Source: Microcystis aeruginosa NIES-843 (GTDB taxonomy: Bacteria; Cyanobacteriota; Cyanobacteriia; Cyanobacteriales; Microcystaceae). Taken from it: a stretch of 32,000 nt of DNA. The stretch is from assembly GCF_000010625.1 (NCBI RefSeq), contig NC_010296.1, forward strand, positions 5,160,001-5,192,000. The letters run 5' to 3'. Positions 273 to 28,647 of the stretch are shown here, in pieces (position 1 is the stretch's first letter; each line of letters starts with the position of its first letter). The translations under genes were made by a program, and so were the position numbers. A model generated the notes under the pieces. That model was not told the DNA's origin and ran no database searches. It worked only from the letters and a program-made list of their open reading frames with translations.

Positions 273-322
273 GATTGCTCAATAAGTTAAAATTGTTCAC
301 ATTCAATTTTTGTTTCGCCAAT

Positions 323-442
323 TCAAGTCTGAATTGCATCACTGCCTGATCTATCTTCATAGAATACTTCATTCGGGGTAGGATAGTCAAGACATTTTTG
401 AGGACGATTGTTAATCAAGTTTACGGCTCTTTCTACTGGAGT
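323..442 (-). pseudogene. IS30-family transposase C-terminal fragment
   Basis: A stop-bounded 39-codon frame reads TPVERAVNLINNRPQKCLDYPTPNEVFYEDRSGSDAIQT*. It resembles the conserved IS30 C-terminal block (LNxRPRKxLxyxTPxEvF). There is no start codon or upstream body. Confidence 0.45.
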
Positions 443-708
443 TTAGACTAAATGTTTACCCAAGCGGTGATCGCCGAATCGCAAGGGCGATCGCTATTTC
501 AACGATCAAAGCCTGTTGTTTACATATATTAATAAAACGAGAATAACAGGTTCTTCGTTACTTAGTATGGTTCGATATGGGGGCATAAATCGACTGAATC
601 CTTATCTGGCAAGAGACTTAATTGATTAGTTCGCTCTAGATCGAAAACAATTGGCAAAAATTGCAGCAATGTCTTTCTATATAAGGGTTTCATCCCTTAT
701 AACCCCCG

Positions 709-870
709 TCCATTGCATAACACAAACCGAAGAGCCGGCTGGGAGAGATAGAAATGAGTTGAAAGTCTTGACCTTCATTATTTTGAATAATAATTTCTTG
801 GCCTTCTGCGGCGGCTTTAAGGAGTTCAGGTAGTTGACTTTGGGCTTCGTTTAAAGTTATTTTTAACATA
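709..870 (-). pseudogene. Truncated Phd/YefM-like antitoxin paralog
   Basis: The 53-aa ORF MLKITLNEAQSQLPELLKAAAEGQEIIIQNNEGQDFQLIS... matches the first ~40 aa of the intact antitoxin at 5052..5279. It then diverges and stops, and no vapC partner follows. Confidence 0.6.
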
Positions 871-922
871 GCTTTGTTGAGTTAAATATTAATTTTTAGC
901 TGATAATTTACTTTAGTTATCT

Positions 923-1110
923 CTAATTTATTATGAATTTATTCGAGAATTTTTTCACAATTTTTAAGCAAAAAATCGCCAATTCTTGGCATAATTTAAG
1001 CACTTGTTGGCAATAGCTGATAGCAAGTTCAGGGCGATTGGTTTTGTGGGCGATTTCAGCGAGAAACACCAATTCGGATTTGAAGTAGCGCAATGTTTCT
1101 AAATTATTGG
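923..1110 (-). pseudogene. Orphan TPR C-terminal tail fragment (copy T3)
   Basis: It encodes ...IANNLETLRYFKSELVFLAEIAHKTNRPELAISYCQQVLKLCQEL... Positions 980-1110 are near-identical in nucleotides to 5393-5525, and the fragment is related to the C-terminus of the 961-aa protein. The 3'-most part has diverged. The track ORF 923..1195 is a chimera with the relE remnant. Confidence 0.55.
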
Positions 1111-1364
1111 CGATAGACTTCTCTGCGATGTTTACATTGCAAGATGAGTATTGTCTGTTTCGCATCATCAATTTCATAAAGCACTCGATAATCACCGATA
1201 CGGAGACGGTGTTACTGTTCAGAATTTTTTAATTTAACAATGCCAGAAGGACAGGGTTCTATTTCCAAACCCTTAATTTTTTCAAGAATACGACCTTTCA
1301 TAGCATTAGGTAAGTCATCAATCTGTTTTTGTACAGATTTAGAGATTTTAATACTATAACCCAT
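1104..1364 (-). pseudogene. RelE/ParE-family toxin paralog with in-frame stop
   Basis: It reads MGYSIKISKSVQKQIDDLPNAMKGRILEKIKGLEIEPCPSGIVKLKNSEQ*HRLRIGDYRVLYEIDDAKQTILILQCKHRREVYRQ*. This is colinear with the intact 5520..5777 copy, but a TAA sits where a Tyr codon is expected. Confidence 0.65.
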
Positions 1365-1370
1365 TATGAT

Positions 1371-1605
1371 TTAATCCTTGCTCAAGTATTGTTCAAGGGT
1401 CACATAGTCGCCTGATTGATATTCATCCCGAACTTGCTGAAGTTCTGCTAGGGGTTTCCTCATCGTCTTGATAGGAAGCCTCTTCTGCTTGAAAAATTTG
1501 TTGTTCTAGTATTTCTAATAATTGTTGTTTTTGCGTTAAGTCAAGGGATTTAATGGCTTCGGTTAGAGATTCAAACGTAATTTTAAGATTGATGGTGGTA
1601 CTCAT
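1371..1605 (-). pseudogene. RelE-associated antitoxin paralog, frameshifted
   Basis: It is nearly identical to 5784..6017 in nucleotides. One extra base (ctgctaggggtttcc versus ctgctaaggtttcc) shifts the frame. The track ORF 1423..1605 therefore ends in the unrelated ...TPSRTSASSG. Confidence 0.65.
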
Positions 1606-1686
1606 GAAATTTCTCCTATTTGGATAAAAAGTTAAATTTTGAGAATTGCTTTAATTTTCATGGTTGGTATAGCTGATCAAGGGTTT

Positions 1687-1800
1687 CTAATTTCCTTCTA
1701 ATGTAACCTGAATTTTTACGAGGAGTTCCTCTCCGTCTTTCATTAGGGTAATGCCTAGCTCCTGGGGGAATTTAAGGGCTTGTTGGCAGTAGTTGAGAGC
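1687..1800 (-). pseudogene. Orphan TPR C-terminal tail fragment (copy T4)
   Basis: The reverse translation ALNYCQQALKFPQELGITLMKDGEELLVKIQVTLEGN* parallels ...LSHCQEALKLCQELGIPLVKDCEELLGQIQGNLGEANK* of the 961-aa protein. There is no start or upstream body. Confidence 0.5.
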
Positions 1801-1839
1801 GCAATCGCGGTCTTGAGAATTGTCCATCATATTTGAACG

Positions 1840-2178
1840 TTAAGCGACAGCAAAGCCTGTATAGGGTCTAATTTCAGGGGATTTAAAGGCTAAAATAATC
1901 TGGTTTTGAGGGATTCCCGCAGCTACTAATTCATCGGCAATACCATCCTCAGTTCCGTCGTGTTGAATCCAAATTTTTTGATCAATAATATCAATATGTA
2001 ATAGGGTTCCGTAGATTCGATAACCATTTTGCCAACCTGTTTCAACCAATAAATAGCGATCGCGGGTTTGATCTAGGACTAATTCGATTTGGATTTGGCG
2101 ATCGGTGTCGAGGAAGTCGGCATAATCTTGGAATGTTTTTTCAATAATTTGCCGATATTGGGCAATTAAGGAAGCCAT
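1840..2178 (-). CDS. xisI: XisI family protein
   Basis: The 112-aa product carries typical XisI blocks (LLVETGWQNGYRIYG, HIDIIDQKIWIQHDGTEDGIADELVAAGIP, PYTGFAVA). Its ATG overlaps the native 3' end of xisH. Confidence 0.85.
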   Translation of the reverse strand: MASLIAQYRQIIEKTFQDYADFLDTDRQIQIELVLDQTRDRYLLVETGWQNGYRIYGTLLHIDIIDQKIWIQHDGTEDGIADELVAAGIPQNQIILAFKSPEIRPYTGFAVA

Positions 2179-2215
2179 CGTACAATTACCTCCTGGTTGG
2201 GATCAAAACTAAATA

Positions 2216-2421
2216 GGGTTGGCTGAATAAATCTAAAAACCTTGTTGGGTAAAACTTTTAGACTTTTTGTCAATCAAAAAGTACCTGGCATGGGAGTGAT
2301 CAGGGGGAAAATTCAGGGACTTTTTCCCTGAAAATTAGGTAATTGACCACCTCAAAACCGGTAAAACCCCACACCCCACACCCCACACCCTGCCCCCAGG
2401 AAAAACTTTTTCAGCAGACCC
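2216..2421. mobile_element. MITE, non-autonomous relative of the IS5-family element at 19596..21277
   Basis: Its termini GGGTTGGCTGAATAAATCTAAAAACC ... GAAAAACTTTTTCAGCAGACCC match the IS ends. It is flanked by the direct repeat TAAATA (2210-2215 and 2422-2427). Internally it carries (CCCCACA)x3. Confidence 0.7.
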
Positions 2422-2803
2422 TAAATAACTGAATAATACCATCTTCAATTAAGGTTTGACCTGCTTCTTCTTCAAACACTGTTTTGCAGGTGTTTTCGCT
2501 AACAGCCAAAAATAGTTTATATTCGGGATAATAACGCCTTAAAAGATGGTTATAAACGACAAATTGACCAACTGCTTCTTCAAGGTCTTTCATGTCAGAG
2601 GGACGAGTAAAGCTCTTAATTTCAACGGCTATTTTTTCTGTTCCTTTTTCTGCGGCTAATAGTCTTTCTGCTCCCAAATCAACAAACAGGTTTTTACCTC
2701 TTGCTAAACGAATCCGTAGGGGGTCATGGGTAATTGTCCAGCCGTCTTTGATTAGGGCGTGTTTTACACAATCATGGAAAATATCTTTGGCAGGCATTTT
2801 CAT
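2411..2803 (-). CDS. xisH: XisH family protein, native C-terminus displaced by MITE insertion
   Basis: The 130-aa product has XisH-like blocks (MPAKDIFHDCVKHALIKDGWTITHDPL, IAVEIKSF). The last codons RVC* are read from the MITE terminal repeat. The native tail SFDPNQEVIVRWLP* is still readable at 2168-2213, on the other side of the MITE. Confidence 0.8.
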   Translation of the reverse strand: MKMPAKDIFHDCVKHALIKDGWTITHDPLRIRLARGKNLFVDLGAERLLAAEKGTEKIAVEIKSFTRPSDMKDLEEAVGQFVVYNHLLRRYYPEYKLFLAVSENTCKTVFEEEAGQTLIEDGIIQLFRVC

Positions 2804-2880
2804 GCTGTTCTATATAAACTCTATGTGATTATACATTTCTTCTGGTTCAAGAATTTCCCAGATTAAGAGTAGTCCTCGAA

Positions 2881-3144
2881 TTATTTGACCAATGATTTAC
2901 TTTGTTGGGGACAGTAAGCAATTCCTGCATGAGTTATAGATGATTGATTGATTCTTAAAAAATCAGTATCTTGAGTAAAAATCACGCGACCATTGGCTAA
3001 GGCAAATTGCAATTGTATTTCATCGGATACCCCCAATAAATTTTCTTCTGGAGTGGTAGTAACATCAAGGCCTCGCTGGCGCAATCCAAGAGCAATGTTA
3101 TAGCTTACATTTTCATCAAGGTGAAATTTAATTTTATTGCCCAT
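2881..3144 (-). CDS. DUF5615-like PIN/Mut7-C-type putative toxin
   Basis: The 87-aa product reads KFHLDENVSYNIALGLRQRGLDV...GRVIFTQDTDF, typical of DUF5615 partners of DUF433. Its start abuts the stop of the upstream gene. Confidence 0.7.
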   Translation of the reverse strand: MGNKIKFHLDENVSYNIALGLRQRGLDVTTTPEENLLGVSDEIQLQFALANGRVIFTQDTDFLRINQSSITHAGIAYCPQQSKSLVK

Positions 3145-3447
3145 TCATTTTTTTAGTTTTTCTTGGACTAGAGAAGGTGTTTTAGCTTGCATTTCCTTGG
3201 CAAAGGTATCATCATCTGTGATTTGTTGTCTAATTTCTTCAAGGTGATCGTGATAGTAAGAAAGGGCCGCGTAAACATCAGCTAAAGTAATGCTGGGATA
3301 ATGATAAACAATTTCATCGGGTGACATTCCCAGACGTTCGTGCCAAATAACGACATCTTGGACTTTGATGCGATGACCTGCGATGCGCGGTTTACCGCCA
3401 CAAGTTTCTGGGGTAATTTCAATGTGATTGATTAAAGTTGTTGTCAT
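3145..3447 (-). CDS. DUF433-like putative antitoxin
   Basis: The 100-aa product contains CGGKPRIAGHRIKVQDVVIWHERLGMSPDEIVYHYPSITLADVYAALSYY, the hallmark DUF433 core. It lies directly upstream of, and contiguous with, 2881..3144. Confidence 0.75.
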   Translation of the reverse strand: MTTTLINHIEITPETCGGKPRIAGHRIKVQDVVIWHERLGMSPDEIVYHYPSITLADVYAALSYYHDHLEEIRQQITDDDTFAKEMQAKTPSLVQEKLKK

Positions 3448-3555
3448 TGATAATAACGAATTTGTCCGATTATAGGGTCACAAGGAATCTGCGCCCAAAT
3501 GTTATATATATTATATCACGTCAAGGTTTATAGAATAATTTTATTATGACAACTC

Positions 3556-3774
3556 TTATAAACTTGAAGCTAATTGAGGCGCGACAATAGTTTCGAGGGA
3601 AAAAGCATTCAGATCCGTTAAGCTTCTGGCCTGTTCCAAGGTGATTGCACAAATGTTCCCATTTTTATCAAGATCTACCAAGGTATTTTCATTGATTTCT
3701 TGAGTCTCGACAATAGGATTGTTATTGAACTCTAAATATAGAGTGTCCGTATCTTGAAAGTAGGTGATTTTCAT
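3556..3774 (-). CDS. DUF2283-like small protein
   Basis: MKITYFQDTDTLYLEFNN...VDLDKNGNICAITLEQA matches the DUF2283 pattern. A disrupted paralog lies at 6819..7072. Confidence 0.7.
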   Translation of the reverse strand: MKITYFQDTDTLYLEFNNNPIVETQEINENTLVDLDKNGNICAITLEQARSLTDLNAFSLETIVAPQLASSL

Positions 3775-3793
3775 GGCTTAAAATTCCTCTACT

Positions 3794-4078
3794 TTAAATA
3801 AGTTGTAAGTCATCTTTTTCTAAGTCGTTAAGAGATTGATTCGTGATGAGAGAATAAAGAACATCGGGGTCTAAATCAGCCCCATTTTCCCAATAAATTG
3901 TTCCCCAATCAGGATTAATTTTGACGGTTTTTAAAAAATCTAAGTCTTTTAGCGGTTGAAAAATGCCAACAAACTCGATAATTTCTTCAAGATTAATAAT
4001 CCCCTCTTGATTATCTTCAAATTTAAGATAAAGTTGATAATTATTTAGAGGTTTCACTTCAACAATATCTTTTAGCAT
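3794..4078 (-). CDS. DUF2442-like small protein
   Basis: The 94-aa product has VKPLNNYQLYLKFEDNQEG and WGTIYWENGADLDPDVLY, the DUF2442 signature. It sits 19 nt upstream of the DUF2283-like gene. Confidence 0.7.
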   Translation of the reverse strand: MLKDIVEVKPLNNYQLYLKFEDNQEGIINLEEIIEFVGIFQPLKDLDFLKTVKINPDWGTIYWENGADLDPDVLYSLITNQSLNDLEKDDLQLI

Positions 4079-4174
4079 GGTTTATCCGTTTATTCTATTT
4101 AACTGATTCTCAACTTAGTCAAATATTAGGAAAAAATTTAAGATCCTTGATAAAAGTAAGAAGATAGTTAATTT

Positions 4175-4378
4175 TCATTCTTTTTCTAATTCAATTAAAG
4201 CTTCCTCAAGAGTTAAGGGTGTTTCATCTTTAACGTCTATCATGGCGCGATAGAGTCCAGTATCTTCATAGGTTTCTATTATTTGTTGATAATCTTCAAA
4301 ATTAATGATAACTTGCTGTATCTGACCTTGATTATCCGTAATCAAGTCTTGAGCAAAAGGATAATCTTTGATGTTCAT
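4175..4378 (-). CDS. Small acidic antitoxin-like protein
   Basis: MNIKDYPFAQDLI...YEDTGLYRAMIDVKDETPLTLEEALIELEKE has the acidic C-terminal pattern seen in RelB/ParD-like antitoxins. I prefer the ATG at 4378 over the track's GTG at 4420, because 4395-4420 is a remnant of another gene's 5' end. Confidence 0.5.
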   Translation of the reverse strand: MNIKDYPFAQDLITDNQGQIQQVIINFEDYQQIIETYEDTGLYRAMIDVKDETPLTLEEALIELEKE

Positions 4379-4412
4379 AATTAATTGTTCCTCATTTTGT
4401 GGACGGTTTGCA

Positions 4413-4595
4413 TTATTCACACTCCTTTGTTTCCAATTCTAATAGGATGGGAATTAAGTCTTTGGCAATATCAATGACGGCATCTATTGTATCAGCTTCA
4501 GCGACAAGTCCTTGTATATCGGGACTGGTGGCGACATAGTAATCTTGGCCGTTTTCTTGAAAGCGTTCAATGGTGAGGTTAATTGGGTTTTGCAT
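4413..4595 (-). CDS. HicB-like / DUF1902-like small protein
   Basis: The 60-aa product reads YYVATSPDIQGLVAEADTIDAVIDIAKDLIPILLE, typical of the HicB N-terminal/DUF1902 fold family. No hicA is evident upstream. Confidence 0.55.
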   Translation of the reverse strand: MQNPINLTIERFQENGQDYYVATSPDIQGLVAEADTIDAVIDIAKDLIPILLELETKECE

Positions 4596-4668
4596 GGAAA
4601 ATCAATAAGGTTTAAAGTTTGCCTGTTAGTTTTTGTGATTAATTTGCTAAAGTTTCTTCTTTTCAGGT

Positions 4669-5055
4669 TTACCACAATAAATTTTCAGTATATCGCTTAA
4701 ATAACTCATCTTTAGTGAGAATCGGAATATTTTCAGTTAAGCTTTGAGCGATTATTAGGCGATCAAAAGGATCTTTATGGTAGTAAGGGAGTCTCTTGAG
4801 TTGTTCGAGATGTTCGGCGTTAATAGATAGTATATCAAAGCCGTTATTATAAACATAATTTTGAATTAAATTTGGGAAAGTTGTCTTTAATTCTAATCTG
4901 TTAAGGCTGGCTTTGATGGACATTTCCCAGAGACTAGCGATACTTAATCGTTTTTGATATTGATTATTTTCGATCAGAGAACGAGCAGCATCACTGAGAT
5001 TATTATCACCTTCGATAAACCATAAAAAGGCGTGGGTATCCATTAAAATTTTCAT
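4669..5055 (-). CDS. vapC: PIN-domain toxin VapC
   Basis: The 128-aa product starts MKILMDTHAFLWF and contains DPFDRLIIAQS, both PIN acidic-residue motifs. Its start overlaps the upstream antitoxin stop in a 4-nt ATGA. Confidence 0.85.
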   Translation of the reverse strand: MKILMDTHAFLWFIEGDNNLSDAARSLIENNQYQKRLSIASLWEMSIKASLNRLELKTTFPNLIQNYVYNNGFDILSINAEHLEQLKRLPYYHKDPFDRLIIAQSLTENIPILTKDELFKRYTENLLW

Positions 5056-5279
5056 GGCATATATTCCTCAAATTCTTCGATGGGATCATCAAAATTGTCA
5101 AGCATTTTAACGATGCCTTTTGCGCTTCCATATTGGGGATGTTTAACAGTAGTAGGAAGAGAAATGAGTTGAAAGTCTTGACCTTCATGATTCTGGATAA
5201 TAACTTGTTCACCTTTTGAGGCAGCTTTAAGGAGGTCAGGTAGTTGACTTTGGGCTTCGTTTAAAGTTAGTTTTATCAT
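5052..5279 (-). CDS. Phd/YefM-like antitoxin of VapC
   Basis: The 75-aa product has an N-terminal LTLNEAQSQLPDLLKAASKGEQVIIQ and a C-terminal GSAKGIVKMLDNFDDPIEEFEEYM, typical of VapB/Phd-type partners. It is translationally coupled to vapC. Confidence 0.8.
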   Translation of the reverse strand: MIKLTLNEAQSQLPDLLKAASKGEQVIIQNHEGQDFQLISLPTTVKHPQYGSAKGIVKMLDNFDDPIEEFEEYMP

Positions 5280-5323
5280 AGCTTTGTTCAGTTAAATATT
5301 AATTTTTGAGATAATAATTTACC

Positions 5324-5533
5324 TTAATTATTCTCTAACGTAGCCTGAATTTGCCCTAACAGTTCCTCACAATATTTAACCAAGGGAATCCCCAATTCTT
5401 GGCATAATTTAAGCGCTTGTTGGCAATGGCTGAGGGCAAGTTGAGGGCGATTGGTTTTGTGGGCGATTTCGGCGAGAAACACCAATTCGGATTTGAAGTA
5501 GCGCAATGTTTCTAAATTATTAGCGATAGACAT
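5324..5533 (-). pseudogene. Orphan TPR C-terminal tail fragment (copy T2), 69-aa ORF overlapping the relE stop
   Basis: Positions 5344-5478 are ~95% identical by eye to 8275-8409, the 3' end of the 961-aa gene. It encodes ...AEIAHKTNRPQLALSHCQQALKLCQELGIPLVKYCEELLGQIQATLENN, a single TPR-like unit. Whether it is expressed is unknown. Confidence 0.5.
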
Positions 5534-5777
5534 CTCTTCGATGTTTACATTGCAAGATGAGTATTACCTGTTTTGGGTCATCAATTTCATAGCGAACTCG
5601 ATAGTCACCAACACGCAAACGGTATTCATAATCAGAATTTTTTAATTTGACTACACCAGGGGGACGAGGTTCTACTGATAAATCTTTGATTTTTTCAAGA
5701 ATACGACTTTTGATGGGATTAGGTAAGTTATCAATCTGTTTTTGTACAGATTTAGAGATTTTAATACTATAATCCAT
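5520..5777 (-). CDS. relE: RelE/ParE-family toxin
   Basis: The 85-aa product contains YRLRVGDYRVRYEIDDPKQVILILQCKHRRDVYR, a typical RelE/StbE C-terminal half. It lies 6 nt downstream of its antitoxin. Confidence 0.85.
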   Translation of the reverse strand: MDYSIKISKSVQKQIDNLPNPIKSRILEKIKDLSVEPRPPGVVKLKNSDYEYRLRVGDYRVRYEIDDPKQVILILQCKHRRDVYR

Positions 5778-5783
5778 TGTGAT

Positions 5784-6017
5784 TTAATCCTTGCTCAAGT
5801 ATTGTTCAAGGGTCACATAGTCGCCTGATTGATATTCATCCCGAACTTGTTGAAGTTCTGCTAAGGTTTCCTCGTCGTCTTGATAGGAAGTTTCTTCTGC
5901 TTGAAAAATTTGTTGTTCTAGTATTTCTAATAATTGTTGTTTTTGCGTTAAGTCAAGGGATTTAATGGCTTCGGTTAGAGATTCAAAAGTGATTTGAAGA
6001 TTGATGGTGGTACTCAT
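5784..6017 (-). CDS. Antitoxin partner of RelE/ParE
   Basis: This 77-aa acidic protein carries ...DDEETLAELQQVRDEYQSGDYVTLEQYL, a common cyanobacterial RelE-partner C-terminus. It sits directly upstream of relE. Confidence 0.75.
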   Translation of the reverse strand: MSTTINLQITFESLTEAIKSLDLTQKQQLLEILEQQIFQAEETSYQDDEETLAELQQVRDEYQSGDYVTLEQYLSKD

Positions 6018-6137
6018 GAAATTTCTCCTATTTGGATAAAAAGTTAAATTTTGATAATTGCTTTAATTTTCATGGTTGGTATAGGTGATCAAGAGTTTCT
6101 AATCTTCTTCTAATGTAGCCTGAATTTTTGCTAATCG

Positions 6138-6769
6138 TTAGTTAATAGAAGTTATCCAAGAAACGGGAACCGCTATCACGTCAATGGTTTCGTTATTGTC
6201 AAACATTTCTAGGAGATAACCGATAACACGATAACACGATAACAGATAACAGATAACAGATAACAGATAACAGATAACAGATAACAGATAACAGATAACA
6301 GATAACAGATAACAGATAACAGATAACAGATAACAGATAACAGATAACAGATAACAGATAACAGATAACAGATAACAGATAACAGATAACAGATAACAGA
6401 TAACAGATAACAGATAACAGATAACAGATAACAGATAACAGATAACAGATAACAGATAACAGATAACAGATAACAGATAACAGATAACAGATAACAGATA
6501 ACAGATAACAGATAACAGATAACAGATAACAGATAACAGATAACAGATAACAGATAACAGATAACAGATAACAGATAACAGATAACAGATAACAGATAAC
6601 AGATAACAGATAACAGATAACAGATAACAGATAACAGATAACCTGCTTCTGATTGTTGTTCCTTAGGAGGTAAATATTCAACAATTGTTCCCTGATCACC
6701 TTTTTTAAAAATAGTGTCGGGGACATCTCTACATAATTTGACTTGTTGAAAAAGTTGGACGGTTTGCAT
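6138..6769 (-). pseudogene. DUF4926-like gene disrupted by an internal GATAACA heptamer expansion
   Basis: The N-terminal part MQTVQLFQQVKLCRDVPDTIFKKGDQGTIVEYLPPKEQQSEAGYL runs into the array. The native continuation LEMFDNNETIDVIAVPVSWITSIN* lies after it in a different frame. The two GATAACC copies that bracket the insertion are 422 nt apart, which is not a multiple of 3. Confidence 0.7.
6215..6642. repeat. Heptanucleotide tandem array (GATAACA), 57 perfect units plus variant end units
   Basis: Perfect 7-bp periodicity runs 6238-6636 (399 nt), checked by phase at each line start. Variant units GATAACC and GATAACAC lie at 6215-6237, and a partial unit at 6637-6642. Confidence 0.95.
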
Positions 6770-6818
6770 TATTCACACTCCTTTGTTTCCAATTATAATA
6801 ATTTGTGATTACAAATTA

Positions 6819-7072
6819 TTATAAACTTGAAGCTAATTGAGGTGCGACAATAGTTTCGAGGGAAAAAGCATTCAGATACTTTAAGTTTTTGGCCTGTTTC
6901 AAGGTGATTGCACAAATATTCCCCTGCTGATCAAGATCGACCAAGGTATTTTGTATTTTGTATTTTGTATTTGGTATTTGGTATTTTCATTGATTTCTTG
7001 AGTCTCGACAATAGGATTGTTATTGAACTCTAGGTATAGAGTATCCGTATCCTGAAAGTAGGTGATTTTCAT
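6819..7072 (-). pseudogene. DUF2283-like paralog disrupted by a GTATTTT heptamer expansion
   Basis: It is colinear with 3556..3774 (start MKITYFQDTDTLYLEFNNNPIVETQEINE...). However, ccaaggtattttcattg in the intact copy is ccaag(gtatttt/gtatttg)x6 cattg here. That is 35 extra nt, giving a frameshift. Confidence 0.7.
6946..6987. repeat. Heptanucleotide tandem array (GTATTTT/GTATTTG) x6
   Basis: Read directly from the sequence: gtattttgtattttgtattttgtatttggtatttggtatttt. Confidence 0.9.
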
Positions 7073-7168
7073 GGCTGACTTGGGTTATCAAGAGTTTCTA
7101 ATCTTCTTCTAATAGTGATTCATTTGGCGGCGATTGCGGTTTTGAGAATTGTCCATCATATTTGAAAG

Positions 7169-7504
7169 TTAAGCGACAGCGAAGCCTGTATATTGACGTA
7201 TTTTAGGTTCATGGAATCCCAAAACAATATCTTCTTTAGCAATGCCTGCGCTTAGTAATTCTTTGGTGATACCGTCTTCGGTGTTGTCACATTGTACCCA
7301 AATTTTGTCGTTAATAATTTCTAAATGAATCAGACAATCATGATAACGCTGATTCTGTTGCCAACCTTCTGAAATGACGAGATATTGATCATTCTGAGGA
7401 TCAAAAGCTAGACGATTTTGAATGTCCGCATTGTTATAAATAATTTGGCTATAGGGGACAAGAATCTGATGAATAATTTTGCGGTAATGGTTTAGTTTAT
7501 CCAT
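7169..7504 (-). CDS. xisI: XisI family protein (second copy)
   Basis: The 111-aa product contains YLVISEGWQQNQRYHDCLIHLEIINDKIWVQCDNTEDGITKELLSAGI...YTGFAVA, parallel to 1840..2178. The downstream flank attgcggt.ttgagaattgtccatcatatttgaa is shared with the first copy. Confidence 0.85.
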   Translation of the reverse strand: MDKLNHYRKIIHQILVPYSQIIYNNADIQNRLAFDPQNDQYLVISEGWQQNQRYHDCLIHLEIINDKIWVQCDNTEDGITKELLSAGIAKEDIVLGFHEPKIRQYTGFAVA

Positions 7505-7655
7505 TGGGTGATTACCTCATTGTCATGGTTAAAGATAATTAGTTTTAGTGTTTTTTCTTCAAGGAGTATTTGACCAATTTCTTGATGAAATAAGCTGTTG
7601 AAAGTTTTTTCCCGAATAGCAAGATAAAGAGTTCTATCTAAAAGTTGGCGAAAGT
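7492..7655 (-). pseudogene. XisH 5'-truncated remnant
   Basis: The frame NFRQLLDRTLYLAIREKTFNSLFHQEIGQILLEEKTLKLIIFNHDNEVITQWIN* matches the C-terminal third of XisH and overlaps the xisI ATG, as in intact pairs. A stop lies immediately upstream and there is no N-terminal part. Confidence 0.65.
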
Positions 7656-7661
7656 TTTATC

Positions 7662-7907
7662 TTAGACTGAGACTAATTCAGGTTCACTGATCAGCCGTAG
7701 AAGTTTTGAGTGATCAACGGTTTCCATCGCAAAGGTTTGGCCGTTTTGATCGGTAAAATCAATCAGAAAAGCTTGCTGATTAAAAGACATTAAAACAGTT
7801 CCCATTTGTCCGCGACGCAGAAGGATGGGCTGATGGGTCGTTTTGTGAGTAGCCGTAACATCTTCCGTTAGGGCAACGAGATCGTATTCTTGAATGGTGT
7901 TCATCAT
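7662..7907 (-). CDS. DUF4926-like small protein, third gene of the TIR-STAND operon
   Basis: The 81-aa product reads EYDLVALTEDV...LRRGQMGTVLMSFNQQAFLIDFTDQNGQTFAMETV, as I recall the DUF4926 pattern. Its start is 7 nt after the stop of the DUF6883-like gene. Confidence 0.6.
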   Translation of the reverse strand: MMNTIQEYDLVALTEDVTATHKTTHQPILLRRGQMGTVLMSFNQQAFLIDFTDQNGQTFAMETVDHSKLLRLISEPELVSV

Positions 7908-7914
7908 GGGCTAG

Positions 7915-8247
7915 TTAATTAATGGGATAGACATTAGTAAGACGAGGAAAATTTTCAGTTATTTGGACAATCCAGCAACTTAAAATTAAGGATTCTCCGA
8001 TGTCGGTACAGAGGTTAAATTTCAGATCATAGTGAGTGCCATATTGATCGATTTTATAAAGTTCGGCTTCTCCTTCCATTACTGCTTTTTTAAGAGCATT
8101 TTCTAGGATTTCTTTATTAGCTAAGGTAATCCCTAATCTTTGTTTGAAAAGCAAGGCTTTATGTTTTCCTTTTGAATGCTCAGGATTGAGGCAGTAACGT
8201 TCAAGTTTGTCTCCTAGGTTGGCTTGATCGGCATTAGGAAGTTTCAT
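7915..8247 (-). CDS. DUF6883-like small protein, second gene of the TIR-STAND operon
   Basis: The 110-aa product contains KLERYCLNPEHSKGKHKALLFKQRLGITLAN...DQYGTHYDLKF...SCWIV...FPRLTNVYP. This matches my memory of the DUF6883 consensus (K..dYcLn..Hp.G.hKA.vF...LG.t...YG.rY...F....sWIv....PRL.t.Y). Its ATG lies 1 nt after the stop of the 961-aa gene. Confidence 0.6.
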   Translation of the reverse strand: MKLPNADQANLGDKLERYCLNPEHSKGKHKALLFKQRLGITLANKEILENALKKAVMEGEAELYKIDQYGTHYDLKFNLCTDIGESLILSCWIVQITENFPRLTNVYPIN

Positions 8248-8248
8248 T

Positions 8249-11134
8249 TTATTTGTTGGCTTCTCCTAAGTTTCCCTGAATTTGCCCTAACAGTTCCTCA
8301 CAATCTTTAACCAAGGGAATCCCCAATTCTTGGCATAATTTAAGCGCTTCTTGGCAATGGCTGAGGGCAAGTTCAGGGCGATTAGTTTTGTGGAAGATTT
8401 CGGCAAGAACTCTTAAACTATAGGCGATTAAATATTTATAATCAATATCTTGAGAAATTACTAAGGATGCTTGAATTTTGCTTTCGGCTTCGCTGTAGTT
8501 TTCTAGTTTGAGCAATATACTCCCTATAGTATGTAGAGAAGATGCTACCCCTTGCCAATCGCCGATTTTTTCACTGATGTCGAGAGATTGCTGGTGATAG
8601 GCGATCGCTTTTTCATACTGTCCCAAGGAAGAATAACAATTGCTTAGATTACCGAAAGAAATTGCCACCCCTTGCCGAAAGCTGATTTTTTCACTGATGT
8701 CGTGATATTGCTGGTAGAGGTCGATCGCTTTTTCATACTGTCCTAGGTCATAATAACAATTGCCTAAATTCCCGAGAGAAATTGCCACCCCTTTCCGATC
8801 GCCCATTGCTTCACTGATGTCGTGACATTGCTGGTGATAGAAAATTGCTTTTTCATACTGCCCCAAGGACTTATAACAATTGCCTAAATTACCGAGAGAA
8901 CTTGCCACCCCTTGCCGATAGCCGATTTCTTCACTGATTTCGAGAGATTGCTGATGATAGGCGATCGCCTTTTCATACTGCCCTAACGAGTAATAACAAC
9001 TACCCATATTGCCTAAAGAAATTGCCACCCCTCGCCGATCGCCGATTTCTTCACTGATGTCGTGATATTGCTGGTGATAGGCGATCGCCTTGTCATACTT
9101 CCCTAACGACTTATAACAAAATCCCAGATTGCCTAAAGAAATTGCCACCCCTTGCCAATCTTCCATTTCCTTACTGATGTCGAGACATTGCTGGTTGAAT
9201 GCGATCGCTTTTTCGTACTGTCCCAAGGAACGATAACAACTTCCCAAATAACTTAACGAGTTACGATAACAAACTTGTTCCCGTTGACTCCCTGCAATCA
9301 CCTGTTCATAATGATCTGCTTGCTTACGATAAAATCCTTGTAAATCTAAAAAACTATCAACCGATTTATTTTTCCATTCTCCGCCTCGATCCTCATCCAA
9401 AATATCGTAAGCTAACTGCCATTCTCCCAATTCCCCTGCATGGTAAAACGCCTCTAAATATTCCTTCAAATCTTCCAAGGATTCCCAGGGAGGGACAGGT
9501 AAATGAGCTAAATAATAATCTAAGGCTAATTGATGGGCAGATCGCAATATTTCAGGATTTGCTTGATCTTGCACCACCATGGAAATTAAAGGCAAAAACT
9601 GAAACTGTCGCCGTTTTACATTGTATTCGGGGGGAAATTCTTGTAATAAAGACAAACGAGCTAAATAGCGTAAATCTTCCTCAGTTATTTCTGGAATTAA
9701 CCCCTGGGCTAACCTGTCATCAAAATTCTCCCGCAGTACCGACAACCGCGTTAAACTCTCCCTAAATTCTTTCGATAATCGCTCTAAACTGGCGGTAATC
9801 ACTTCTCTAACACAGGTTTCCGTGTCGCGGTGATACCCTTCCACATCAAACATATTTAAGCCCAAATTTTGCGACTCAGTGACAGAAACCCCTTTCCCAA
9901 ACTTATCTTTCATCAAACTACAAACCAGTTCCATTAAGAGGGGATGACCTCCCATTTTATCGACAAATTGGGCTAATTCTTCATCGCTTCCCGTTAAGCC
10001 GTGATCTTCGGTGACATAACGCATCGCATCCGCTTCTTTTAACCCTTTTAAAGGCCAAGAATAATAATAATCTTGCAAATTGACGGGGAATTTTAGCTGT
10101 TCTCGACTGGTGACTAATAGCTTACTGCTGCTTTCTGTGTTTAACCATTTTTGCAAGAATTGCTGATAAACCAAATTTACTGGGGCAGTTAGTACCGTTT
10201 CCAAATTATTCAACACTAATAAACAGGGTTTAGCGGTTAACCCTTTGCTGATTGCGTCTATTAATTGCCCATCATTCCATTTTTCATCATAATTTTGTTT
10301 TAACTCCTCTAATAACCACCGTCCGAACTGTGCCAAAGGGTAAGGCTGGTTAAAATTAACCCATAATACCGGCCAATCAGCAGTTAATTGATCTGTAAAC
10401 TTTCTCGCCAGAGCAGTTTTACCATAACCCCCGGCGGCGGTAATCTCGATTAACCTTAGATGGTCATTCCCTAACGCTGTTTGGAGTTCTTGCAATTCTT
10501 CCCGTCGTCCTTGCCATCTACGCACGGGTGGGAGTTGCGTATCCACTAACCCAGAGGTGGTCAGGGGTTGGACCGCTTTTTTAGAGGGTTCAGACTGTTT
10601 TTTTTTAGATTCTTCAATCAGCGATCGCAATTTATCCTCAACGGATACGAAAACTTTTTCATATTCTGATTTCTTTAGATCACAGAGAGGATTGCTGGGA
10701 GAATTATTGCTAGGAGACTGAAATTGATGTAAGTAAAATCTTTGTTCTATTCCCTCTTCATTAGTGTATTTAAAAGAAACACTTTTCACAGTAGAATGTC
10801 TAAGAAATATAGGAATTATAACGACTCCTTCTTCTTCACGTCTTTTCAAAATACGGGGTAATTCTTCATTCTTCACATAACGAGAATTAAGCAGATCTTG
10901 GCTAACCAAGACCATCGCAATTGTTACTTGTGATAAACTGTCTTTAATTTTTTCATCCCAAATATCCCCCGGTTGTATGTCGATATCTGACCAGACTATT
11001 TTTTCCTCATCATTCAGAGGTTCGAGAAATTTTAACAGTCTGTCTCTCCATCCTTTGTCTTGGTGGGAATAACAAATAAAAATTGATGGCATATCTTTTT
11101 CCTCTGACATAACCACTTTTCTGTTATACCACAT
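8249..11134 (-). CDS. TIR domain / NB-ARC-type STAND P-loop NTPase / TPR-repeat protein (bacterial NLR-like)
   Basis: The N-terminus is TIR-like: IFICYSHQDKGWRDRLLKFLEPL...VLVSQDLLNSRYVKNEELPRIL...IIPIFL. The centre carries Walker A AAGGYGKTALA, a Walker B-like CLLVLNNLE, LLVTSRE and GGHPLLMEL (a GxP motif). The C-terminus has about 8 x 40-aa TPR units (LGNLGNCYxSLGQYEKAIxYHQQ). The start could instead be the ATG at 11110 (MSEEKD...). Confidence 0.85.
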   Translation of the reverse strand: MWYNRKVVMSEEKDMPSIFICYSHQDKGWRDRLLKFLEPLNDEEKIVWSDIDIQPGDIWDEKIKDSLSQVTIAMVLVSQDLLNSRYVKNEELPRILKRREEEGVVIIPIFLRHSTVKSVSFKYTNEEGIEQRFYLHQFQSPSNNSPSNPLCDLKKSEYEKVFVSVEDKLRSLIEESKKKQSEPSKKAVQPLTTSGLVDTQLPPVRRWQGRREELQELQTALGNDHLRLIEITAAGGYGKTALARKFTDQLTADWPVLWVNFNQPYPLAQFGRWLLEELKQNYDEKWNDGQLIDAISKGLTAKPCLLVLNNLETVLTAPVNLVYQQFLQKWLNTESSSKLLVTSREQLKFPVNLQDYYYSWPLKGLKEADAMRYVTEDHGLTGSDEELAQFVDKMGGHPLLMELVCSLMKDKFGKGVSVTESQNLGLNMFDVEGYHRDTETCVREVITASLERLSKEFRESLTRLSVLRENFDDRLAQGLIPEITEEDLRYLARLSLLQEFPPEYNVKRRQFQFLPLISMVVQDQANPEILRSAHQLALDYYLAHLPVPPWESLEDLKEYLEAFYHAGELGEWQLAYDILDEDRGGEWKNKSVDSFLDLQGFYRKQADHYEQVIAGSQREQVCYRNSLSYLGSCYRSLGQYEKAIAFNQQCLDISKEMEDWQGVAISLGNLGFCYKSLGKYDKAIAYHQQYHDISEEIGDRRGVAISLGNMGSCYYSLGQYEKAIAYHQQSLEISEEIGYRQGVASSLGNLGNCYKSLGQYEKAIFYHQQCHDISEAMGDRKGVAISLGNLGNCYYDLGQYEKAIDLYQQYHDISEKISFRQGVAISFGNLSNCYSSLGQYEKAIAYHQQSLDISEKIGDWQGVASSLHTIGSILLKLENYSEAESKIQASLVISQDIDYKYLIAYSLRVLAEIFHKTNRPELALSHCQEALKLCQELGIPLVKDCEELLGQIQGNLGEANK
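8500..9260. repeat. Intragenic 120-bp tandem periodicity (TPR-coding units)
   Basis: The motif (a/c)ttgccacccct(t/c)(g/t)cc recurs at 8661, 8781, 8901, 9021 and 9141. A related copy, gatgctaccccttgcc, lies in the same register at 8541, giving an exact 120-nt spacing. Long near-identical stretches occur between units. Confidence 0.85.
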
Positions 11135-11141
11135 CTAACCC

Positions 11142-11174
11142 AGAAAACGGGTTTCTCTAAGAAACCCGTTTTCT
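11142..11174. other. Perfect 15-bp-arm palindrome (hairpin) just upstream of the TIR-STAND start
   Basis: The sequence agaaaacgggtttct-cta-agaaacccgttttct begins 8 nt upstream of the ATG at 11134. No flanking T-run is present on either strand, so it is not a canonical terminator. Confidence 0.6.
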
Positions 11175-11227
11175 AACTTAAGATTGGTCGATTTCAATCC
11201 CGGCTACTTCTTTCAAACATTTTGTAA

Positions 11228-11374
11228 ATGGCCCTGTTTGAAGCCTATCACGTTCCGCTCTATTTAAAAGCAGAACAGATCTTGATCATGGATAATTATA
11301 CTTGTCTCCATTCTCGCCAATCCTACATTGACCCCAATCGCTGTCTTGAAAGGGTAATGTTCGATGTTCCCTAA
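11228..11374 (+). pseudogene. TauD/TfdA-family dioxygenase C-terminal fragment
   Basis: The 48-aa frame MALFEAYHVPLYLKAEQILIMDNYTCLHSRQSYIDPNRCLERVMFDVP* resembles the C-terminal (d)lLi.DN.r.lHgR..f....R.L.R block of TauD-like enzymes. An in-frame stop lies immediately upstream. Confidence 0.4.
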
Positions 11375-11409
11375 CGGGAAATCGGGGTTAACTACCGGCT
11401 TTATAAGTA

Positions 11410-11483
<74 letters not shown>

Positions 11484-11567
11484 GTTGCTTTATCTAGTAT
11501 AGAACTAAATCTCGGTAAATGCCAAGGAGTTTGTAATATTCCTTTACATTTACCGTCCGACCAGAGG

Positions 11568-13295
11568 TTAATACTTACGTTCCACGGGGGTGAAATCCTG
11601 AATCACCACGGGCATATAGTCGATATCGATGCCGGAGGGGGAATAATAGGCGAGGGTATGCTGAAGGAAATTTTGGTCATCCCGTTGGGGAAAATCTTCG
11701 CGGGAATGGGCCCCTCGGCTTTCTTGACGATTGAGGGCAGAGGTGAGGATAATTTCCCCCACCACCATGAGACTTTGTAATTCCCAGGCCTCGATTAGTT
11801 CCGTATTCCAGCAATCCCCCCTATCATCGAGGTAAATCTGCTCGTATTGGCGCTTTAATTCGCCGATTTGTTTAATTCCCTCGCGCATGGTCGCTTCGGT
11901 GCGAAAAACGCCGCAATGTTGGGTCATACAGTCTTGGAATTGCTGACGTAGTTGACCGATGCGAATCGTGCCTTTTTTGGTCAATAAAGCGGTGATTTCC
12001 TCTTTGGCATCCTGAAGGTAAATATCGGGATTAAAGACGGGAAAAGCGCGTTTTTCGACGTATTTAGCGATCGATTTGCCGGTTCTTCTCCCATAGACCA
12101 CACATTCTAACAGGGAATTACTGCCCAAACGATTGGCCCCGTGGACGGAGACACAGGAACATTCCCCGGCGGAGAAAAAGCCTTCGCTGAGGGTATCGGC
12201 ACTTAAGCGAACGCGACCATCGGTATTAACGGGAATGCCTCCCATACAATAGTGAACTGTAGGACGGACGGGCATCGGTTCCTCTACCGCATCGACACCG
12301 ACGAGACGGTGGGCCTCCTCCCAACAAAAGGGAATGCGACTCATAATTTTTTCCCGGCCTAAATGGCGTAAATCCAGATAGACAAAGGGACCCCCGGCGC
12401 TACCGTCCAGATTTACCCCCCGGCCGGCGCGAATTTCTAGGGTAATGGCCCGGGAAGTGATGTCCCGGGGTGCCAATTCCATGCGCGAGGGGGCGTAGTC
12501 TTCCATAAAACGACGACCTTCGCTATTGATTAAATAAGCGCCTTCACCCCGGACCGCTTCCGAGATTAAAACACCGACGGGATAGAGTCCCGTGGGGTGA
12601 AATTGGACAAATTCCATGTCTTCTAGGGGAATACCCGCTTTTGCCGATAAAGCTAAACCGTCTCCCGTACAGGCGAAATCGTTGGAGGTGGTGTTATAAA
12701 CGCGACCATAGCCCCCCGTCCCGAACATAATTGCTTTTGCCCGGAGGATTTCTAACTGTCCGGTGGCGATTTGGTACATTACTACCCCTTTAGCCGTACC
12801 TTCTTCGAGGATAAGACGCAAAACGTACCATTCATCGTAGATTTTTACCTGATTACGGCCTAAATTGCTGACTAATTCGTGCAGCATGGCGTGACCGGTT
12901 TTATCGGCGGCGTAACAGGCACGGTTATGGCTGTGACCGCCAAAGGCTCTTTGGGCAATGCGTCCATCTTCGAGACGGGAGAATAACACGCCTAGATGTT
13001 CCAATTCGATGATAACTTCGGGGGCTTCTTTGGTGAGAATATCCACTGCATCCTGGTCAGCCAGAAAATCGGAACCTTTGACAGTATCGTAGGCGTGGGC
13101 CTTGGGATTATCTTTGGGGTCAACGTTTTGCAGGGCGGCGGCGATACCTCCCTGGGCGGCGACGGAGTGGGAACGAATCGGGTGGGTTTTGGCAACGACA
13201 GCAACATCGATAGTCGGGTTGAGGCGTTTGATTTCTAAGGCGGCGCGGCATCCTGCTAACCCACCGCCCACTATAACGACATCGTGTTCTTTCAT
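11568..13295 (-). CDS. sdhA: Succinate dehydrogenase/fumarate reductase flavoprotein subunit
   Basis: The 575-aa product has an N-terminal FAD-binding [26 protein letters not shown] carries the covalent-FAD histidine context. HPTG, RGEG and the C-terminal [11 protein letters not shown] blocks are also present. Confidence 0.9.
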
Positions 13296-13381
13296 GGCTG
13301 ATTTTTCTAGGGGCTTCTGTTTCTATGGTGGGGTGAGAATTGCTCGGAAGTCAGTTTTGTAACCGAGACTTTATATTTCAC

Positions 13382-13451
13382 GAGACAGGAGACAGGAGAT
13401 AAGAGACAGGAGACAGGAGACAGGAGGCAGGAGATAGGAGATAGGAGACAG
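13382..13451. repeat. Heptamer STRR array (GAGACAG family, 10 units with variants)
   Basis: The units read gagacag gagacag gagataa gagacag gagacag gagacag gaggcag gagatag gagatag gagacag. The array lies ~87 nt upstream of the sdhA start. Confidence 0.9.
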
Positions 13452-13486
13452 TAGCCGGTCGTCAGGAGACTATTTTTATTGATTCT

Positions 13487-13616
13487 CCCCACTTCCCCAC
13501 TTCCCCACTTCCCCACTTCCCCACTTCCCCACTTCCCCACTTCCCCACACCCCACACCCCACACCCCACACCCCACACCCCACACCCCACACCCCACACC
13601 CCACACCCCACACCCC
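13487..13616. repeat. Adjacent C-rich tandem arrays: (CCCCACTT)x7 then (CCCCACA)x10
   Basis: Octamer units start at 13487, 13495 ... 13535. Heptamer units start at 13543 ... 13606, followed by a final CCCC. The complementary strand is GGGG-N3/4 repeated 18 times. Confidence 0.95.
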
Positions 13617-13649
13617 AAAAAAACAACCCGCGGCAGTTAACCGCGAGTT
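13612..13649 (-). terminator. Probable intrinsic terminator of petE
   Basis: The hairpin lies 23 nt past the petE stop. On the minus strand it reads aactCGCGGttaactgCCGCGggtt, extendable with one mismatch, and is followed by gttttttt. Confidence 0.55.
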
Positions 13650-13671
13650 ATTTTTGCTTAAAATCGGATAA

Positions 13672-14049
13672 TTACTGAACGGTAATCGTTCCGACCATAC
13701 CGGCGCCGCGATGGGGTTCGCAGTAGTAGGTGTAAGTACCCGGTTCGCTGAAAGTGCTTTCAAAGGACTCACCGGCGGAAAAAGCCAGACCTTTATGGGA
13801 TAATTTGCTGGCTTGGGCTTCGGGAACCTTGGTGCTATCGAAAACTATGTTATGGGGAGAAAGTTTGTTATTGACCCATTTCACCGTATCTCCTGCTTTA
13901 ATAGTGAGGGCGGGGGGATCAAATTGTAGTGTACCTGCATCACCGCCCATCTTCACTGTGAAGGTTTCGGCGGAAGCGGCGGCAGTGTTGAAGAAGAAGC
14001 TAGAGACGACTAGCACCAGGGTAGCGACCAATAAACCTAATTTTTTCAT
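13672..14049 (-). CDS. petE: Plastocyanin precursor
   Basis: The 125-aa product has a signal peptide ([27 protein letters not shown]). The mature sequence is [18 protein letters not shown]...PHNIVFD...[20 protein letters not shown], with the type-1 copper ligand pattern H...C..H....M. Confidence 0.95.
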
Positions 14050-28416: not shown

Positions 28417-28647
28417 AATAACTAAAGATGTGCGAAACGTTTAGGCATCAAATAAGGAGCCAAATGCCTGAAATAATTGCCTAGTCAGGTCTTCAGTGAT
28501 CAAACGGCAGCCAATGGAAACCTAGAATCATCCGTAGTTAACTTGACCTTGAGTCAACTACAATGATATATAGACAGCCAATGAATGTCAGGCTGTATCC
28601 TTAACAAGGGAACAGTCAAACGAGGAGCCGTATGAGGTAAAACTCTC

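Follow-up and report, generated by a model that had tools for sequence, protein, structure and literature searches.

Whether genes that lie almost end to end on a chromosome also work together is the question raised by a locus of Microcystis aeruginosa NIES-843. Within a window of 32,000 nucleotides (the whole stretch analysed; contig NC_010296.1, positions 5,160,001 to 5,192,000), a long open reading frame (ORF) encodes a protein with TIR, NB-ARC and tetratricopeptide repeat (TPR) regions, which resembles the signal-transducing NTPases of the STAND class, and it is followed on the same strand by a DUF6883 and a DUF4926 gene. The stop of the STAND gene and the ATG of DUF6883 form the junction TAA-A-ATG, with a gap of 1 nt, while the DUF6883 stop is followed after 7 nt by the ATGATG of DUF4926. 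Because homologs of the latter begin at the second Met, its likely start is 7904 and the real gap between the two small genes may be 10 nt. The first-pass annotation of this DNA had given the three ORFs the same sizes, coordinates, strand and spacing as were recovered here (Table 1), and had read them as translationally coupled members of a candidate three-gene conflict system, mentioning as an alternative that the small genes could be a hitch-hiking toxin–antitoxin (TA) cassette. It is this alternative that gains support from the autonomy of the pair, its assortment among strains and the origin of the junction: most probably the locus holds two independent units, a sensor gene and a swappable TA-like cassette, adjacent through the way the island was constructed.

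The autonomy of the pair was established from DUF6883 neighbourhoods at 80 species-level cyanobacterial loci. In 79 of these DUF6883 is followed by DUF4926 at a distance of 6-27 nt, the lone exception being cut by a contig end, and a TIR gene was found upstream of the pair in none (0/80). NB-ARC and/or TPR genes precede it in 6 loci, with small ORFs intervening in 3 of them, a NACHT gene in 1, and a C-terminal TPR fragment alone, here called a stub, in 7. Type ISP restriction enzymes take this position in 4 loci, ending 8-13 nt before the DUF6883 ATG, with a Type ISP stub in 1 further locus and a Type I S subunit in another. The list is completed by ComM/YifB-like ATPases in 4 loci (confirmed by Pfam in L068 and L081, assigned in L073 and L080 from same-sized ORFs and in L080 also from a matching C-terminal peptide) and by RecQ-like helicases in 3 (L071 and L074 by Pfam, L076 by a matching C-terminal peptide); the remaining loci have an unrelated gene, an opposite-strand gene or no gene upstream. 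In a tree of DUF6883 proteins the TPR/STAND-linked cassettes are spread over at least four clades, interleaved with other contexts, while the Type ISP-, ComM- and RecQ-linked cassettes form one clade each. The DUF6883–DUF4926 pairing is autonomous of its flanking genes. As for the neighbourhood association by which the first-pass annotation was to be judged, the part that stands is a recurrent link with the 3' ends of TPR genes in at least four clades; the part that does not is its strength, since such loci are a minority and the link is no stronger than that with restriction, ComM-like or RecQ-like genes.

Among Microcystis strains the STAND gene and the pair assort freely, all four combinations of presence and absence being found. 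In strain W13-11 (L003), at the same petE–sdhA site, homology with the window extends from the plastocyanin gene to 11234 at 96% identity, beyond which the STAND gene gives way to about 1 kb of unrelated DNA that carries a TauD-like gene in the opposite orientation. Homology restarts over 8340-7130 at 98%, so that DUF6883, DUF4926 and XisI are intact and the TIR-STAND body is absent. The same module, from window position ~8406, lies inside other cassette arrays in L004 and L006, and in L003, L004 and L006 a 100%-identical pair is preceded only by a stub of 46-54 codons of a TPR gene. For the opposite comparison, STAND orthologs were taken from a metagenome scan with the TIR–NB-ARC part, being 95-99% identical in those domains. 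The pair is present behind the TIR-STAND ortholog in L085, L086 and L088, and also in L001 and L002, and it lies directly downstream of a TIR-less paralog in L093. In L083, L087 and L089 it is absent, the STAND 3' end running straight (blastn) into window 5469 to 4428, which is the second TPR stub followed by the Phd-like/PIN genes. Four isolate genomes (L105-L108) carry an ortholog at the same petE–sdhA(–tRNA-Met) site with DUF6883 in 0/4, their first cassette being antitoxin/ParE (L105), a 78-aa/DUF2283 pair (two genomes) or Phd-like/PIN (L108). Counting the window, the pair is lacking at 7/13 TIR-STAND ortholog loci. A side observation concerns L085, where 10818-12639 holds another DUF6883 copy, broken and covering residues 3-75 at 85% identity, with its own TPR stub, and an intact DUF4926 (98%) about 1.2 kb beyond it, which suggests an insertion within the cassette.

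The tight junction itself was traced by comparing the C-terminal tail of the STAND protein with the cassette that follows it at 12 ortholog loci, and the two covary perfectly. The tail GNLGEANK goes with DUF6883 at a gap of 1 nt, ATLENN or TTLDNN with Phd-like/PIN at 44 nt where the cassette is visible (L087, L089 and L108), VTLEGD with antitoxin/ParE at 81 nt, and GDVADNL with 78-aa/DUF2283 at 80 nt; in L083 the contig ends before the Phd-like ORF, and the assignment is made from the DNA, which continues into window 5469-5123. The stubs tell the same story, since those linked to DUF6883 all end in …CAAATTCAGG followed by GAAACTTAGGAGAAGCCAACAAATAAAATG, even where there is no STAND gene, and those linked to Phd diverge immediately past CAAATTCAGG. 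The cassette-side breakpoint lies just past …EELLGQIQ, each cassette contributing the final 6-8 codons of the STAND frame together with its stop. As the tail covaries with the cassette, the junction is cassette-borne; therefore the 1-nt spacing was inherited with the cassette and gives no evidence of functional partnership; the coupling read from it at first travels with the cassette and not with the STAND gene. From these sequence comparisons, the DUF6883/DUF4926 cassette is one of at least four interchangeable TA cassettes recombining into the slot behind the sensor gene.

Table 1. Features of the locus and its surroundings (window coordinates)
Feature	Position	Strand	Description and basis
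TIR–NB-ARC(STAND)–TPR gene	8249-11134	minus	961 aa; predicted sensor/effector resembling nucleotide-binding leucine-rich repeat (NLR) proteins; ORF and Pfam
DUF6883 gene	7915-8247	minus	110 aa; predicted stand-alone toxin
DUF4926 gene	7662-7907	minus	81 aa; predicted immunity protein/antitoxin; SH3-like beta-barrel
TIR domain, aa 18-114	10793-11083	minus	Pfam TIR_2; candidate catalytic Glu E91 in SRYVKNEELP
NB-ARC/STAND NTPase core, aa 213-411	9902-10498	minus	Pfam NB-ARC; motifs across the family
TPR array, aa 631-950	8285-9244	minus	tandem repeat, period 120 nt
TPR-cap stub, copy 1	8262-8409	minus	last ~50 STAND codons; direct-repeat family D3
TPR-cap stub, copy 2	5334-5478	minus	92-95% identical to copy 1; within 69-aa ORF fragment 5324-5533, before Phd-like/PIN
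TPR-cap stub, copy 3	922-1065	minus	70-86% identical; part of segmental duplication
Strain-variable segment (~2.8 kb)	5470-8275	minus	absent in L083, L087 and L089 (blastn)
Orphan XisI gene, without XisH	7169-7504	minus	Pfam XisI, E 1.7e-43
Antitoxin-like ORF (77 aa) and ParE toxin	5784-6017 and 5520-5777	minus	Pfam; cassette type found behind the STAND gene in L105
Phd-like antitoxin and PIN toxin	5052-5279 and 4669-5055	minus	Pfam; directly behind the STAND gene in other strains
tRNA-Met(CAT)	11411-11484	minus	ARAGORN and Rfam; upstream of the STAND gene

How such cassettes could be exchanged is indicated by the stubs. The coding sequence of the C-terminal TPR cap is conserved throughout the family, from Microcystis to Pseudanabaena, and homology is therefore available for exchange. 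Inter-strain homology breaks at 8340-8409, within the first stub copy, and the direct repeats 8266-8409 and 5335-5478, which are 92% identical, flank the strain-variable segment, whose content comprises DUF6883, DUF4926, XisI, a DUF2283 fragment, a heptamer array and the antitoxin/ParE pair. As the repeated inter-cassette element is a coding TPR-cap stub, homologous recombination among the 3' ends of paralogous STAND-TPR genes is indicated. Mobility of the integrase or attC type was considered and rejected, there being no integrase and 0 inverted repeats in 1-14000. The cap sequence (~145 nt) would thus act as portable homology, by which TA cassettes carrying their own cap end and last codons would be swapped in and out behind STAND-TPR genes, leaving stubs. 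Several side observations may be added. Stubs recur between TA cassettes in relatives too, a further weak copy is seen at 1707-1800, and a copy of window 8275-8555 in inverted orientation adjoins, in L005, the cassette boundary at 8407. Moreover, the Type ISP-linked DUF6883 cassettes (L050, L037, L038, L043 and L065) repeat the pattern; in L050, at 5735-5956, only a C-terminal fragment of the Type ISP enzyme (…MQQIDEAIPGFPIE) is present, and it ends 13 nt before the DUF6883 ATG.

The nature of the pair was approached through family membership and predicted structure. Both small proteins belong to their Pfam families (DUF6883 with E 8.7e-21 over its full length, DUF4926 with E 5.6e-16) and keep the invariant family positions, 32/32 in DUF6883, H24, K30, E98 and R102 included, when aligned with 23 homologs, and 20/20 in DUF4926. 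The AlphaFold2 model of DUF6883 (pLDDT 95.5) consists of three helices at the N-terminus and an antiparallel sheet of four strands. In the predicted viral structures of BFVD, Foldseek matched it to the C-terminal domains of two phage MuF-type 'minor capsid' proteins, the best with TM 0.88, a root-mean-square deviation of 1.7 Å, 30% identity and E 6e-9, and the second with TM 0.83 and E 2.5e-9; there were also matches to domains in a phage Zn-peptidase protein and in a polyvalent ADP-ribosyltransferase protein. The DUF4926 model (pLDDT 87) is all-beta, an SH3-like barrel, and its top Foldseek matches are all SH3 domains with TM 0.5-0.7. These SH3 matches have non-significant E-values. Neither small protein matched a model in PADLOC, NCBIfam or PHROGs. 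A 2026 preprint (10.64898/2026.08.28.747851) independently describes DUF6883 as a family of BECR-fold RNase toxins, 'BECR-Tox3', also fused to Phage_Mu_F, and DUF4926 as its conserved downstream partner and likely immunity protein, so that the earlier statement that the pairing had no characterised precedent is outdated. The pair is best regarded as a stand-alone toxin–immunity (TA-like) cassette, with a putative RNase activity and a putative neutralisation of it. DUF6883 would be the toxin, which DUF4926 would presumably bind and neutralise, and the cassette would most likely persist by addiction, incidentally stabilising the island, like other TA modules.

The upstream gene, whose product is identical to a database entry named 'tetratricopeptide repeat protein [Microcystis aeruginosa]', has the architecture foreseen in the first-pass annotation. 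All its domain calls were right, the profile search matching TIR_2, NB-ARC (marginally) and TPR_12 as well as DUF6883 and DUF4926. The TIR domain was matched by Pfam TIR_2 (E 3.6e-13, 50.5 bits against a gathering score of 28), by Pfam TIR (PF01582; 23.8 against 21.3) and by the ThsB-like TIR model of PADLOC (E 1.6e-18). The acidic residue singled out at first in SRYVKNEELP does occupy the catalytic position, E91 being aligned, in a weak alignment (E 0.022), to E84 of MkeTIR-SAVED (7qqk). The latter is the experimentally defined catalytic residue of TIR-SAVED, whose E84Q variant is catalytically dead (bioRxiv 10.1101/2022.05.04.490601), and the E91 motif is identical in the aligned TIR-bearing orthologs (P0250 and P0291). 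The NB-ARC match is marginal (24.6 bits against a gathering score of 23.5), with AAA_16 and AAA_22 below their cut-offs, and the expected motifs GGYGKTALA, LLVTSRE and GGHPLL are all present: in an alignment of 15 family members the Walker A GGYGKT(ALA) is intact, G235-K239 being invariant, LLVTSRE is the sensor-1 region and GGHPLL the GxP motif. Walker B is atypical, (C)LLVLNNLE at ~10205-10228 (aa 303-310), the Asp usual in STAND proteins being replaced by Asn. The family pattern is hhhh[N/D]N[L/M]E, in which N310 and E312 are invariant and some paralogs keep the acidic residue. That the 'NN' could mark a pseudogene was rejected, as N310 is invariant and the pattern is found family-wide in Microcystis, Crocosphaera and Pseudanabaena.

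The C-terminal part is dominated by TPRs, with strong matches from ~aa 600 to the C-terminus (Pfam TPR_12, E 7e-63). The array consists of six near-identical units of 40 aa (120 nt) and two degenerate caps, the eight units or so that had been counted at first, and was recovered by the tandem repeat search with period 120, 5.9 copies and 81% matches. Orthologs fall into length classes about 40 aa apart, of ~800, 880, 920 and 960 aa (P0241-P0290), and therefore the number of TPR units is polymorphic. As a related observation, the TIR/NB-ARC part is 95-99% identical between strains and the TPR region only 63-86%. Judged from these sequences, the array is one that gains, loses and diversifies units. 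The N-terminus also varies: paralogs or alleles with an NB-ARC 90-95% identical bear EAD4 (PF19959) instead of TIR (P0295-P0324; e.g. P0297 of M. aeruginosa PCC 7806SL), and further paralogs have no recognisable N-terminal domain.

As regards known classes, the NB-ARC region had no meaningful match among PDB sequences, and in PADLOC, at E <= 0.01, no Avs1-5 or bNACHT model was matched, only generic TPR and TIR models. Membership of the FxSxx-COOH/peptide-processing STAND proteins was rejected, NCBIfam FxSxx_TPR scoring 89.8 bits against a cut-off of 300, and the window contains none of the peptide-processing genes linked to FxSxx systems. A keyword search of the 2026 Nature STAND survey (PMC13581612) turned up no discussion of this NB-ARC–TPR/TIR class. 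AP-ATPases with C-terminal TPRs and an N-terminal TIR have been described computationally by Kaur, Burroughs, Iyer and Aravind (eLife 2020, PMC7159879), and the 961-aa gene belongs to this STAND–TPR class, in which TIR and EAD4 can replace each other at the N-terminus. If it works like Avs, bNACHT, the TIR-NLR of E. coli and the plant TIR-type NLRs (TNLs), it would be a single-gene sensor and effector. The TPR array would bind an invader-derived ligand, upon which the NB-ARC module would oligomerise and the TIR domains would cluster into composite NADase sites using E91; NAD+ would then be depleted, or a signal made, and the infection aborted.

The surroundings of the two units are those of a TA island. 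The locus lies, as the first-pass annotation had it, at the tRNA-proximal end, with tRNA-Met upstream, beyond which are sdhA-like and plastocyanin genes, and a dense TA array downstream. The island edge, i.e. the inter-strain homology break seen with L003 and L006, is at ~11234, about 177 nt past the 3' terminus of tRNA-Met and 100 nt before the ATG of the STAND gene. Past the three genes, small TA-type modules follow one another closely on the minus strand, all in one orientation: the orphan XisI, a DUF2283 fragment, a heptamer-broken DUF4926-like gene, antitoxin/ParE, Phd-like/PIN, DUF1902 with a RelB-like gene, DUF2442, DUF2283, DUF433/DUF5615 and XisH/XisI. XisI follows DUF6883 after ~414 nt in L003-L006, and L085, L086 and L088 have it behind the pair too. 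XisI and XisH look like TA-type small modules here. It was observed besides that the orphan XisI always travels with the DUF6883 module in Microcystis, and that a complete XisH/XisI pair is located at 2411-2803 / 1840-2178.

The gene order observed leaves room for other explanations, of which an obligate three-gene conflict system is the one proposed at the outset, with the pair as a dedicated partner of the TIR-STAND protein, either effector and immunity protein or trigger mimic. The gaps of 1 and 7 nt do suggest one transcript, the arrangement is identical in L001, L002, L085, L086 and L088, and even the TIR-less paralog of L093 has the pair directly downstream. Nevertheless, a TIR gene is upstream at 0/80 loci, mostly with no STAND gene there at all, the pair persists at 100% conservation without a STAND gene in L003, L004 and L006, the 7/13 ortholog loci mentioned do without it, the tight junction belongs to the cassette, and no PADLOC model links these families, so that an obligate system is very unlikely. 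An equally slight chance is given to the pair being a decaying, functionless remnant of a phage MuF-type polymorphic toxin locus. The nearest structural relatives are in fact C-terminal domains of phage minor capsid proteins, and broken cassettes are many in the island (the DUF2283 fragment, the orphan XisI and the heptamer-disrupted DUF4926-like gene); but both ORFs are full length and keep their invariant positions (32 and 20), several Microcystis strains share the pair at 100% identity, no phage structural genes are nearby, and the occurrence of an intact pair in 79 species argues for selection.

A facultative relation deserves more attention, in which whichever cassette lies behind the STAND gene is co-transcribed with it and serves the sensor, either by addiction, guarding a costly gene against loss, or as a secondary or back-up effector set free once the sensor fires. 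A TA cassette is the first downstream gene of every ortholog examined, always co-oriented and at short gaps of 1-81 nt, TIR-less paralogs also have TA cassettes next, DUF6883 cassettes recur beside TPR genes or stubs in at least four clades, and a precedent exists in DUF397, a TA toxin recruited as co-effector of NTPase conflict systems (PMC7159879). On the other hand, the lack of a shared fold or target among the cassettes agrees better with a passive slot than with a specific partnership, the same cassettes are found deep in the array and in genomes without a STAND gene, DUF6883 is coupled equally tightly to restriction, ComM-like and RecQ-like genes, and TA enrichment of variable islands is expected without any functional link. 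This relation is accordingly considered rather improbable. The related proposal that the STAND–TPR 3' end is a dedicated exchange slot, whose promoter-less cassettes would be expressed via the sensor gene as an addiction module or back-up effector, is held to be improbable to much the same degree.

The reading preferred here, two independent units, has in turn several observations to face. DUF6883 cassettes adjoin TPR/STAND genes or stubs in at least four separate clades, and every ortholog examined has some TA cassette next. The pair has no obvious promoter of its own in the window and is probably co-transcribed with the STAND gene in this strain; a scan of 7000-11700 for promoters and terminators gave counts at shuffled expectation (12 against 11.7 and 4 against 4.0), and the one minus-strand promoter site at 8445-8417, within the TPR 3' end, is without statistical weight. 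A looser link between cassette and sensor, such as co-transcription or stabilisation of the sensor gene, may thus exist. As to function, the change from Asp to Asn in Walker B might mean an NTPase incapable of ATP hydrolysis, or one which uses another residue. The RNase/BECR assignment of DUF6883 follows from the preprint and from the match to domains in the toxin position of phage proteins. Against PDB, Foldseek returned no match with E <= 1e-3, the best being cystatin-like folds and a chain of a Salmonella TA complex reaching TM 0.40 only; a profile of the 23 DUF6883 proteins gave only chance-level resolvase matches among PDB sequences (E 0.4-1), and the BECR fold is not confirmable from solved structures. 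A second DUF4926-family protein pairs with a DUF1902/HicB-like gene (L090), and the immunity role of DUF4926 is not fully secure. The NADase, RNase, toxicity, neutralisation and anti-phage roles are all predictions made from sequence, structural models and analogy.

Other features of the window were noted in passing. A segmental duplication of ~1 kb (750-1717 against 5160-6129), with 86-95% identity and a spacing of ~4412 nt between its copies, includes the antitoxin/ParE pair, a TPR stub and the beginning of the Phd-like gene; the distal copy is decayed, its Phd-like ORF and antitoxin being truncated to 59 and 60 aa, respectively. In the minus-strand ORF 6209-6769, the 3' part of a second DUF4926-family gene is replaced by a perfect 7-nt tandem array (AGATAAC x61, at 6214-6642); intact 69-aa homologs of this gene stand behind a DUF1902/HicB-like gene in L090 and L094; partners other than DUF6883 therefore exist for this family. 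Short tandem arrays are also found between the sdhA-like and plastocyanin genes at 13382-13617 (GAGACAG x10, TCCCCACT x8 and CCCCACA x11), one of these motifs occurring inside the island too, at 2366-2390. On the plus strand, domain V/VI of a group II intron was detected by Rfam at 28622-28701 (RF00029, 49.1 bits; RF04357, 63.8 bits), and a 570-aa ORF just upstream (26704-28416, plus strand) could be the intron-encoded protein.

In comparison with what has been described, the pair shares with the DUF6883/DUF4926 pairs of the preprint its Pfam memberships, gene order and the fold of phage MuF-type C-terminal domains. It differs in that the toxin is here a stand-alone protein of 110 aa, without a domain for delivery or for the capsid, and so behaves like a TA-like cassette of the chromosome; a TPR-cap stub lies 5' of the cassette in Microcystis, and there is no significant match to a solved BECR structure. 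With the TIR-STAND sensors, such as Avs, bNACHT, the plant TNLs and the single-gene TIR-NLR of an E. coli P4 satellite, which is anti-phage by experiment (PMC9122126), the 961-aa protein has in common the TIR domain, the STAND NTPase, a C-terminal repeat sensor, a Glu at the catalytic position and a location in a variable island. Unlike them, its NTPase is NB-ARC/AP-ATPase-like, TPRs replace the leucine-rich repeats or Avs-type sensor, and its Walker B is hhhh[N/D]N[L/M]E rather than hhhhDD/E. The AP-ATPase/STAND–TPR conflict systems (PMC7159879; eLife 2021, PMC8195603) are matched by the TIR/EAD4 N-termini of the Microcystis paralogs and by near-identical repeat units whose number varies between strains, whereas no vWA-MoxR, peptide-processing or EAD partner genes are near this locus. 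Finally, superintegron-like TA arrays and tRNA-linked defence islands also have dense co-oriented two-gene modules at a tRNA and strong strain turnover, but here there is neither an integrase nor attC-like inverted repeats, and the inter-cassette repeat is coding.

Nothing in this locus is new in kind, the sensor class being known and the toxin–immunity cassette already described. A caution for annotation follows all the same, as a spacing of 1 nt from stop to ATG, which resembled operon logic, was the property of a mobile cassette carrying the end of the upstream gene. In Microcystis, whose blooms are toxic, an unusually large and variable set of defence and TA genes shapes how the organism interacts with cyanophages. 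For an NLR-like TIR sensor of a cyanobacterium, the locus is in this context a clean candidate open to testing, with natural variants, in the number of TPR units and in TIR versus EAD4, which are usable for mapping specificity. Moreover, the pattern of stubs, derived from TPR caps in Microcystis and from the Type ISP C-terminus in one other genome, provides a concrete recombination mechanism for the turnover of TA cassettes in such islands. If the exchange slot were true, it would constitute an integrase-free, integron-like mechanism tying TA cassettes to innate-immune sensors, in which the cap sequence is the homology arm and the cassette supplies the last codons and the stop of the sensor.

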